64,000 nt of DNA from Escherichia phage ECO07P2. The notes below the pieces were generated by a model. The model worked only from the letters and a program-made list of their open reading frames with translations. It did no database searches and had not been told where the DNA came from. Positions 21,508-21,963 of this stretch are shown here, piece after piece (the stretch's first letter is position 1; the number at the start of each line of letters is the position of its first letter). Made by a program: the position numbers and the translations under genes. The stretch lies in the sequence record OP172785; one strand, given 5' to 3'.

Positions 21508-21963
21508 TTATTTTAAATCGTCTGCCCAATCGAGTTTAAGAGGCTCTTTGTATTCACGGTCGAGTACGACCGGAATTTGTACATCACCGCTAAATGATAA
21601 GGGCCCAACATTATAAGACAATGTTATATGCGGCGTGTAATCATCAAAATCATGTGTAGCACCTAGTGCCCGCGCATACATGTGTCGACAGCGCAGATAT
21701 TCAGAATCTAGCACAAGTACAAGAGTCGATCCATCTTGTGTTTTCCATACTTCTAAATGTCCAGAAGAAGCTACTTCAAAACTTCCGCTTGATGGAACAT
21801 ACGGAACATTTACTCTTGAATAACATATGGTCGAATGAATTTTTTCTCTAGGAACTGGATTAGGAACACGTAAAGAGCGCTGAAGTTCTTCCAGCGCATC
21901 AAGTGTTAATTCTGAAAACTTAGCTGCTACATAAAGACCCGTTGAAAAGTCTTTAAATTCCAT
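21508..21963 (-). CDS. 57B: 2H phosphoesterase-like protein (T4 57B position)
   Basis: 151 aa; two H-x-T/S-x motifs (HSTICY and HITLSY) characteristic of the 2H/LigT fold. Confidence 0.7.

Follow-up and report, generated by a model that had tools for sequence, protein, structure and literature searches.

The window analysed here is a stretch of 64,000 nucleotides from Escherichia phage ECO07P2 (sequence record OP172785). Roughly a third of the way along, on the minus strand, three genes follow one another without a gap: gene 1, gene 57A and the gene at position 57B of the T4 map, whose product is the subject of this report. The features on which the argument draws are these.

9979-10245, minus strand: acb2 (T4 vs.4), which codes for a cyclic-oligonucleotide sponge; 88 of 88 residues identical to T4 Vs.4, Pfam Acb2_Tad1_hairpin E=7.3e-20
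21508-21963, minus strand: coding sequence of acb1 (T4 gene 57B), 151 amino acids plus stop, ATG start; from the list of open reading frames, identity to T4, Pfam and PDB
21508-21531, minus strand: segment of the C-terminal lid, residues 144-151 with W146 (W147 of T4); lid role predicted from homology to FBB1 Acb1
21622-21630, minus strand: second catalytic motif, H112-I113-T114, codons CAT ATA ACA (H113/T115 in T4 numbering)
21829-21837, minus strand: first catalytic motif, H43-S44-T45, codons CAT TCG ACC (H44/T46 in the 152-residue T4 numbering)
21963-22205, minus strand: gene 57A, tail-fibre assembly chaperone; Pfam GP57 E=2.6e-50, 97.5% identical to T4 57A
22205-22918, minus strand: gene 1, dNMP kinase; Pfam DNMK E=1.1e-103, 96.3% identical to T4 gp1
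22561-22568, minus strand: exact match, within gene 1, to the T4 late-promoter consensus TATAAATA; candidate promoter for 57A-acb1

Gene neighbourhood and transcription

The reading frame at 21508-21963 lies below the frames matched by the Pfam models for GP57 (57A) and dNMP kinase (gene 1), as in T4, and the earlier note was right to place it at the 57B position. Gene 57A is directly upstream, and the string TAATG holds both its stop codon and, overlapping it, the start of acb1; gene 1, upstream of 57A and on the same strand, overlaps the 57A start by a single base. The order 3-1-57A-57B is kept in the window, in T4 and in all six Straboviridae phages of other genera that were compared, one for each genus. 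The 3 kb surrounding acb1 are 94-99% identical to many T4-like phages of Escherichia and Shigella (best match ECO07P3, at 98.8%), from which we conclude that the window comes from a Tequatrovirus.

The late-promoter site inside gene 1 lies upstream of 57A, 356 nt from its start. The consensus TATAAATA occurs 23 times in the window, where chance would give 9.9. The site at 22561-22568 is presumably used as a promoter, and 57A and acb1 would then be transcribed together from within gene 1. Such late transcription would agree with PMC9117128, where Acb1 activity arises some 15 min after infection by T4. A scan of positions 20700-24000 for sigma-70 promoters and terminators, which is uninformative for a T4-type phage, returned 14 promoter-like sites against 12.4 in shuffled sequence and one terminator-like site against 1.7.

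On the other side of acb1, two internal head protein genes at 20787-21107 and 21163-21435 (both minus strand; phrog_2667 and phrog_7673) stand in place of T4 ipI. The leaders of the two proteins, MKTYQEF and MKTFKEF, are typical. In tblastn searches of the window, T4 ipI and ipII gave no match and ipIII was matched at 12431-13006. Nucleotide homology to T4 restarts at 21414, within the 5' end of a 90-codon reading frame. The locus beside acb1, which codes for injected proteins, is thus a replaceable one. Promoter-like sites at 21466-21494, 21130-21158 and 20747-20775 (minus strand) lie just upstream of the two internal-protein frames and of a frame resembling trna.4. The first two sites read TTTACA-N17-TACTAT and the third TTTACT-N17-TATTAT, and all three carry a TG extension, which gives the impression of one promoter cassette placed anew before each small gene.

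The tRNA array to which the earlier note had pointed is present, with 11 genes at 18719-19740 (minus strand) that include those for His, Asn, Tyr and Met; T4 has 8 tRNAs, with segB inserted among them. No match to the segB homing-endonuclease gene was obtained by tblastn in the window, so that the array is without segB, and ARAGORN called a tRNA-Met (CAT) where the corresponding position of the T4 array is annotated as tRNA-Ile. An operon that would link acb1 to this array was considered and ruled out by the approximately 1.8 kb and five reading frames that separate them (two for the internal head proteins and three homologous to T4 trna.2-4), a stretch that is variable among T-even phages. 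Elsewhere in the window, at 7832-8296 (minus strand), lies a homologue of Tk.4 that is only 57% identical to the T4 protein, for which the T4 annotation gives a phosphatase with an A1pp/macro motif. Its neighbours regB and vs.4 are 99-100% identical to their T4 counterparts, and the divergence of the Tk.4 homologue is therefore local.

Identity and active-site residues of the 57B product

All 151 residues of the product match T4 gp57B (NP_049750.1) when the T4 protein is counted from residue 2, its second methionine, and the two proteins share the same C-terminus. The start regions differ: T4 has ATGATG, annotated as the start of a 152-residue protein, and the window has ATAATG, which leaves only the second ATG usable and gives 151 residues. 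What is lost by this difference is just the additional Met with which the annotated T4 protein begins. At the nucleotide level acb1 departs from T4 at 9 of 456 positions; all nine changes are synonymous and eight of them fall at third codon positions, as would be expected if a functional protein is under purifying selection. The Pfam family Acb1 (PF23474) is matched with 202.7 bits against a cut-off of 27 (E=2.6e-60), residues 8-149 covering the entire profile (1-144 of 144). The Acb1 crystal structures 7T26 and 7T27 are matched over residues 8-148 at 68% identity (E=4.1e-62), and a more distant Acb1 structure, 9Q2G, is reached with a profile (E=1.5e-13). A scan of the protein against NCBIfam matched no family. 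The reading frame at 21508-21963, in a T4-like Tequatrovirus, almost certainly encodes Acb1 (anti-CBASS protein 1), the enzyme with which T4 degrades CBASS signals, and nothing in the sequence speaks against this assignment. The gene itself is already known, its product being the same protein as the T4 Acb1 that was characterised in 2022.

The earlier note had started from two H-x-T motifs in this protein. Both are there, HST at residues 43-45 in the context KIHSTICY and HIT at residues 112-114 in the context PHITLSY, with H43 and H112 separated by 69 residues and not by the approximately 80 first estimated. The protein has, then, the pair of H-x-T/S motifs that form one active site in 2H phosphoesterases. 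The pair alone is weak evidence and is not significant: a loose motif, defined as two H-x-[ST] placed 40-110 residues apart, occurs in 4 of the 71 reading frames of at least 100 amino acids in the window and in 8.7% of shuffles of the Acb1 protein. A stricter version with hydrophobic flanks is a poor discriminator, as it misses even Acb1, a true 2H protein (IHSTI, PHITL). What makes the motifs meaningful is the match at the level of the family together with the invariance of H43, T45, H112 and T114 among homologues. We aligned nine sequences, namely the window protein, the 7T26 chain, proteins of six Straboviridae phages (one phage per genus from Krischvirus, Tulanevirus, Lazarusvirus, Pseudotevenvirus, Schizotequatrovirus and Slopekvirus) and that of a 440-kb Salicola jumbo phage. 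The four residues are invariant in all nine, with identity to the window protein down to 31%. Only ten columns of this alignment are invariant; these four are among them, as is P111. The aromatic residues that stack on the bases of the ligand (Y11, W73, F106 and W146) and the adenine-reading E140 are likewise all present in the window protein, at the T4 numbering minus one.

A structure prediction, which the earlier note had proposed as a check, contributed nothing to the fold assignment. The AlphaFold2 single-sequence model of the 151-residue protein reached a mean pLDDT of 37.9 and a pTM of 0.30, which is too poor to use. The 2H alpha+beta fold is consequently assigned by homology to the solved crystal structure 7T26 only; the 68% identity to that structure, with the identity to T4 Acb1, is enough to settle it.

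Published activity, proposed mechanism and RNA substrates

What can be said of mechanism and phenotype comes from the T4 protein, identical in amino acid sequence, and from close homologues. In the study by Hobbs et al. (2022, PMC9117128), a 3'3'-cGAMP-degrading activity purified from T4-infected cells led to gene 57B, whose product was named Acb1. It is described there as a metal-independent phosphodiesterase of 2H fold that cleaves the cyclic di- and trinucleotide signals of CBASS, 3'3'-cGAMP and cAAA among them, and that leaves cGG, cA4 and 3'2'-cGAMP uncleaved. Crystals of Acb1 from Erwinia phage FBB1 have a compact 2H phosphoesterase fold. The pocket takes cyclic di- or trinucleotides only; Y12, W74, F107 and W147 stack on the bases, E141 reads the N6 of adenine, and a C-terminal lid (residues 145-152), seen in the FBB1 structure, shuts over the ligand with W147 in the stack. 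In the 7T26 complex the scissile phosphate is found above the tetrad H44/T46/H113/T115. The reaction has two steps and proceeds through a 2',3'-cyclic phosphate to GpAp bearing a 3'-phosphate. According to the same source, H44A/H113A Acb1 has no activity and lysate of T4 Δacb1 no longer cleaves cGAMP. The mutant phage grows normally without CBASS and is impaired, by more than 300-fold, on CBASS-carrying hosts only. Among accessible papers, a literature search on this point yielded just the Acb1 paper and one review, and none in which 57B had been predicted earlier, by computation, to be a 2H protein.

By analogy with T4, we infer that the copy in ECO07P2 is expressed and has Acb1 activity, and a mechanism can be proposed on that basis. 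After infection, a host CBASS cyclase would make cyclic di- or trinucleotides that would switch on a cell-killing effector. Acb1 would bind these molecules in a U-shaped pocket in which Y11, W73, F106 and W146 stack on the bases and E140 recognises the N6 of adenine, with the C-terminal lid covering the ligand. The tetrad H43/T45/H112/T114 would then carry out metal-independent acid-base catalysis. In the first step the 2'-OH of adenosine would attack the 3'-5' bond and give a 2',3'-cyclic phosphate intermediate; in the second, this intermediate would be hydrolysed to a linear product with a 3'-phosphate end. With the signal gone, the effector would stay inactive and the phage could complete its cycle.

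Other readings of the protein turn on RNA. Acb1 might have a second activity, hydrolysing 2',3'-cyclic-phosphate ends of RNA or cutting oligoribonucleotides, short or linear ones, on the 3' side of adenosine. We judge this quite improbable, because the pocket is closed and limited in size and because the phenotype of the deletion is specific to CBASS. Were it true, Acb1 would have a side role against RNA-cleaving defences, or would degrade other oligoadenylate signals.

Less probable still, and in our estimate highly so, is the function proposed in the earlier note, in which the protein would be a 2',3'-cyclic phosphodiesterase or 2'-5' RNA ligase of the LigT/ThpR type that heals tRNA ends cut by PrrC or RloC, as part of an RNA-repair toolkit with RnlB and the tRNA array. 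The 2H fold and the twin HxT motif agree with such a function, and so does the second step of the Acb1 reaction, which is the hydrolysis of a 2',3'-cyclic phosphate (PMC9117128). The match to the LigT-type Pfam model 2_5_RNA_ligase2 (PF13563) is weak and below threshold, at 13 bits against a cut-off of 27 (E=0.11, residues 80-122 only). Of the assignment to a LigT/2H family, the 2H fold class therefore stands, with the Pfam Acb1 match and the 68% identity to 7T26, and the LigT type does not. The other components named by the earlier note exist as well: the frame at 54889-55893 matches the Pfam families RNA_ligase and T4_Rnl2_C and is an Rnl2 homologue, and it shares the window with 11 tRNA genes. 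RnlB, however, lies 33 kb from acb1, in a block of head genes, and is not co-transcribed with it. The conserved neighbours of acb1 are 57A, gene 1 and gene 3, none of them an RNA-repair gene, and linkage of acb1 to genes for end healing or sealing was not encountered in its surroundings, where 57A, gene 1 and the internal head protein genes are found.

Biochemistry and genetics also speak against RNA repair. The pocket, once closed by its lid, fits cyclic di- and trinucleotides only, and the 3'-phosphate of the Acb1 product is unusable by a ligase unless a phosphatase acts first. The available part of PMC9117128 contains no report on Acb1 and broken RNA ends, which leaves some room for an RNA substrate, but T4 Δacb1 replicates normally in the absence of CBASS and the sole defect reported is CBASS-specific. 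The answer of T4 to PrrC consists of Pnkp and Rnl1, which heal and seal without any 2H enzyme (PMC3025547), and in the literature consulted on that pathway we found no role for 57B in the countermeasure. The first reading of the protein is thus partly supported, being right on fold and chemistry and not on biology. As for the notion that the twin H-x-T/S signature arose by chance in a protein whose fold or function is unrelated, the frequency of the loose motif pair would favour it, but its probability is practically nil and it is already refuted by the full-length matches to the Acb1 family and crystal structure (E of about 1e-60), by the four motif residues that stay invariant across the alignment and, according to PMC9117128, by the loss of activity of the identical T4 protein when both histidines are mutated.

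Anti-CBASS genes and comparison with known systems

Returning to Acb1 as the product of 57B, it is acb2/vs.4 (9979-10245), and not RnlB, that is its functional partner in the window. The two genes are about 11 kb apart. PMC12657218 equates acb2 with vs.4, and of the anti-CBASS genes known from T4 this phage therefore has both. Together they predict resistance to many CBASS systems. They also predict sensitivity to guards of the Panoptes type, which sense the loss of cyclic nucleotides. Type II Panoptes is such a guard system, which fires on degradation of its cA3; it restricts T-even phages with intact acb1, and the phages that escape are acb1 mutants, as later, independent work shows (PMC13577387). 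Type I Panoptes in T4 depends on acb2 and not on acb1 (PMC12657218). The practical value of our result lies in annotation. In many phage records, in PHROGs and in the T4 RefSeq record, 57B is labelled 'RNA ligase' or 'hypothetical protein'. The former label is widespread and could be taken in favour of RNA repair, yet it probably reflects an old name based on homology, and in its outdated form it invites exactly that misreading.

The closest known system is T4 Acb1 itself (NP_049750.1), which shares with the window protein the same 151 amino acids, the same position in the order 1-57A-57B, the catalytic tetrad, the stacking residues and the lid. T4 differs in its extra N-terminal Met, in the nine synonymous changes and in having ipI downstream, where the window has two other internal-head-protein genes. 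The Acb1 of phage FBB1 (7T26, 7T27) has the same HxT/HxT tetrad and 68% identity over residues 8-148, and the 2H fold, like the mode in which 3'3'-cGAMP is bound, is defined by its structures; it is, however, the orthologue of another phage, with about one-third of its residues changed.

Among more distant relatives, the homologues of Cronobacter phage leB (Pseudotevenvirus; locus 2513-3085) and Klebsiella phage 150040 (Slopekvirus; 2459-3082) are longer than T4 Acb1 at the C-terminus, by about 50 residues (…KWVILNHDRTKELGEYDSKEAVEKRLRQIEYFK…). A profile of Acb1 homologues also matches the C-terminal part of the portal protein of cyanophage Pam3 (PDB 8HDS chain A, residues 497-609; E=6.4e-8), where both motifs are kept as HVTIAYS and HISLS. 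This match suggests that an Acb1-like 2H domain is fused to the Pam3 portal protein.

With the 2H enzymes LigT and ThpR, Acb1 has in common the twin HxT/S motifs, the fold class and a metal-independent catalysis that passes through a 2',3'-cyclic phosphate. The two differ in substrate, which for Acb1 is a closed cyclic di- or trinucleotide and not an RNA end, and in chemistry, as Acb1 cuts a 3'-5' bond first and leaves a product with a 3'-phosphate. They differ also in role, which for Acb1 is immune evasion and not the healing of RNA ends, and their sequence similarity is below threshold. In strategy, Acb1 resembles Apyc1, the ring nucleases (AcrIII-1/Crn), the poxvirus enzyme poxin and the sponges Acb2 and Tad1/2, all of which remove a nucleotide messenger of the host. 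These viral enzymes and sponges are nevertheless unrelated to Acb1 in fold and chemistry: Apyc1 has a metallo-beta-lactamase fold with Zn, and Acb2, the partner of Acb1 in this phage, sequesters its ligand.
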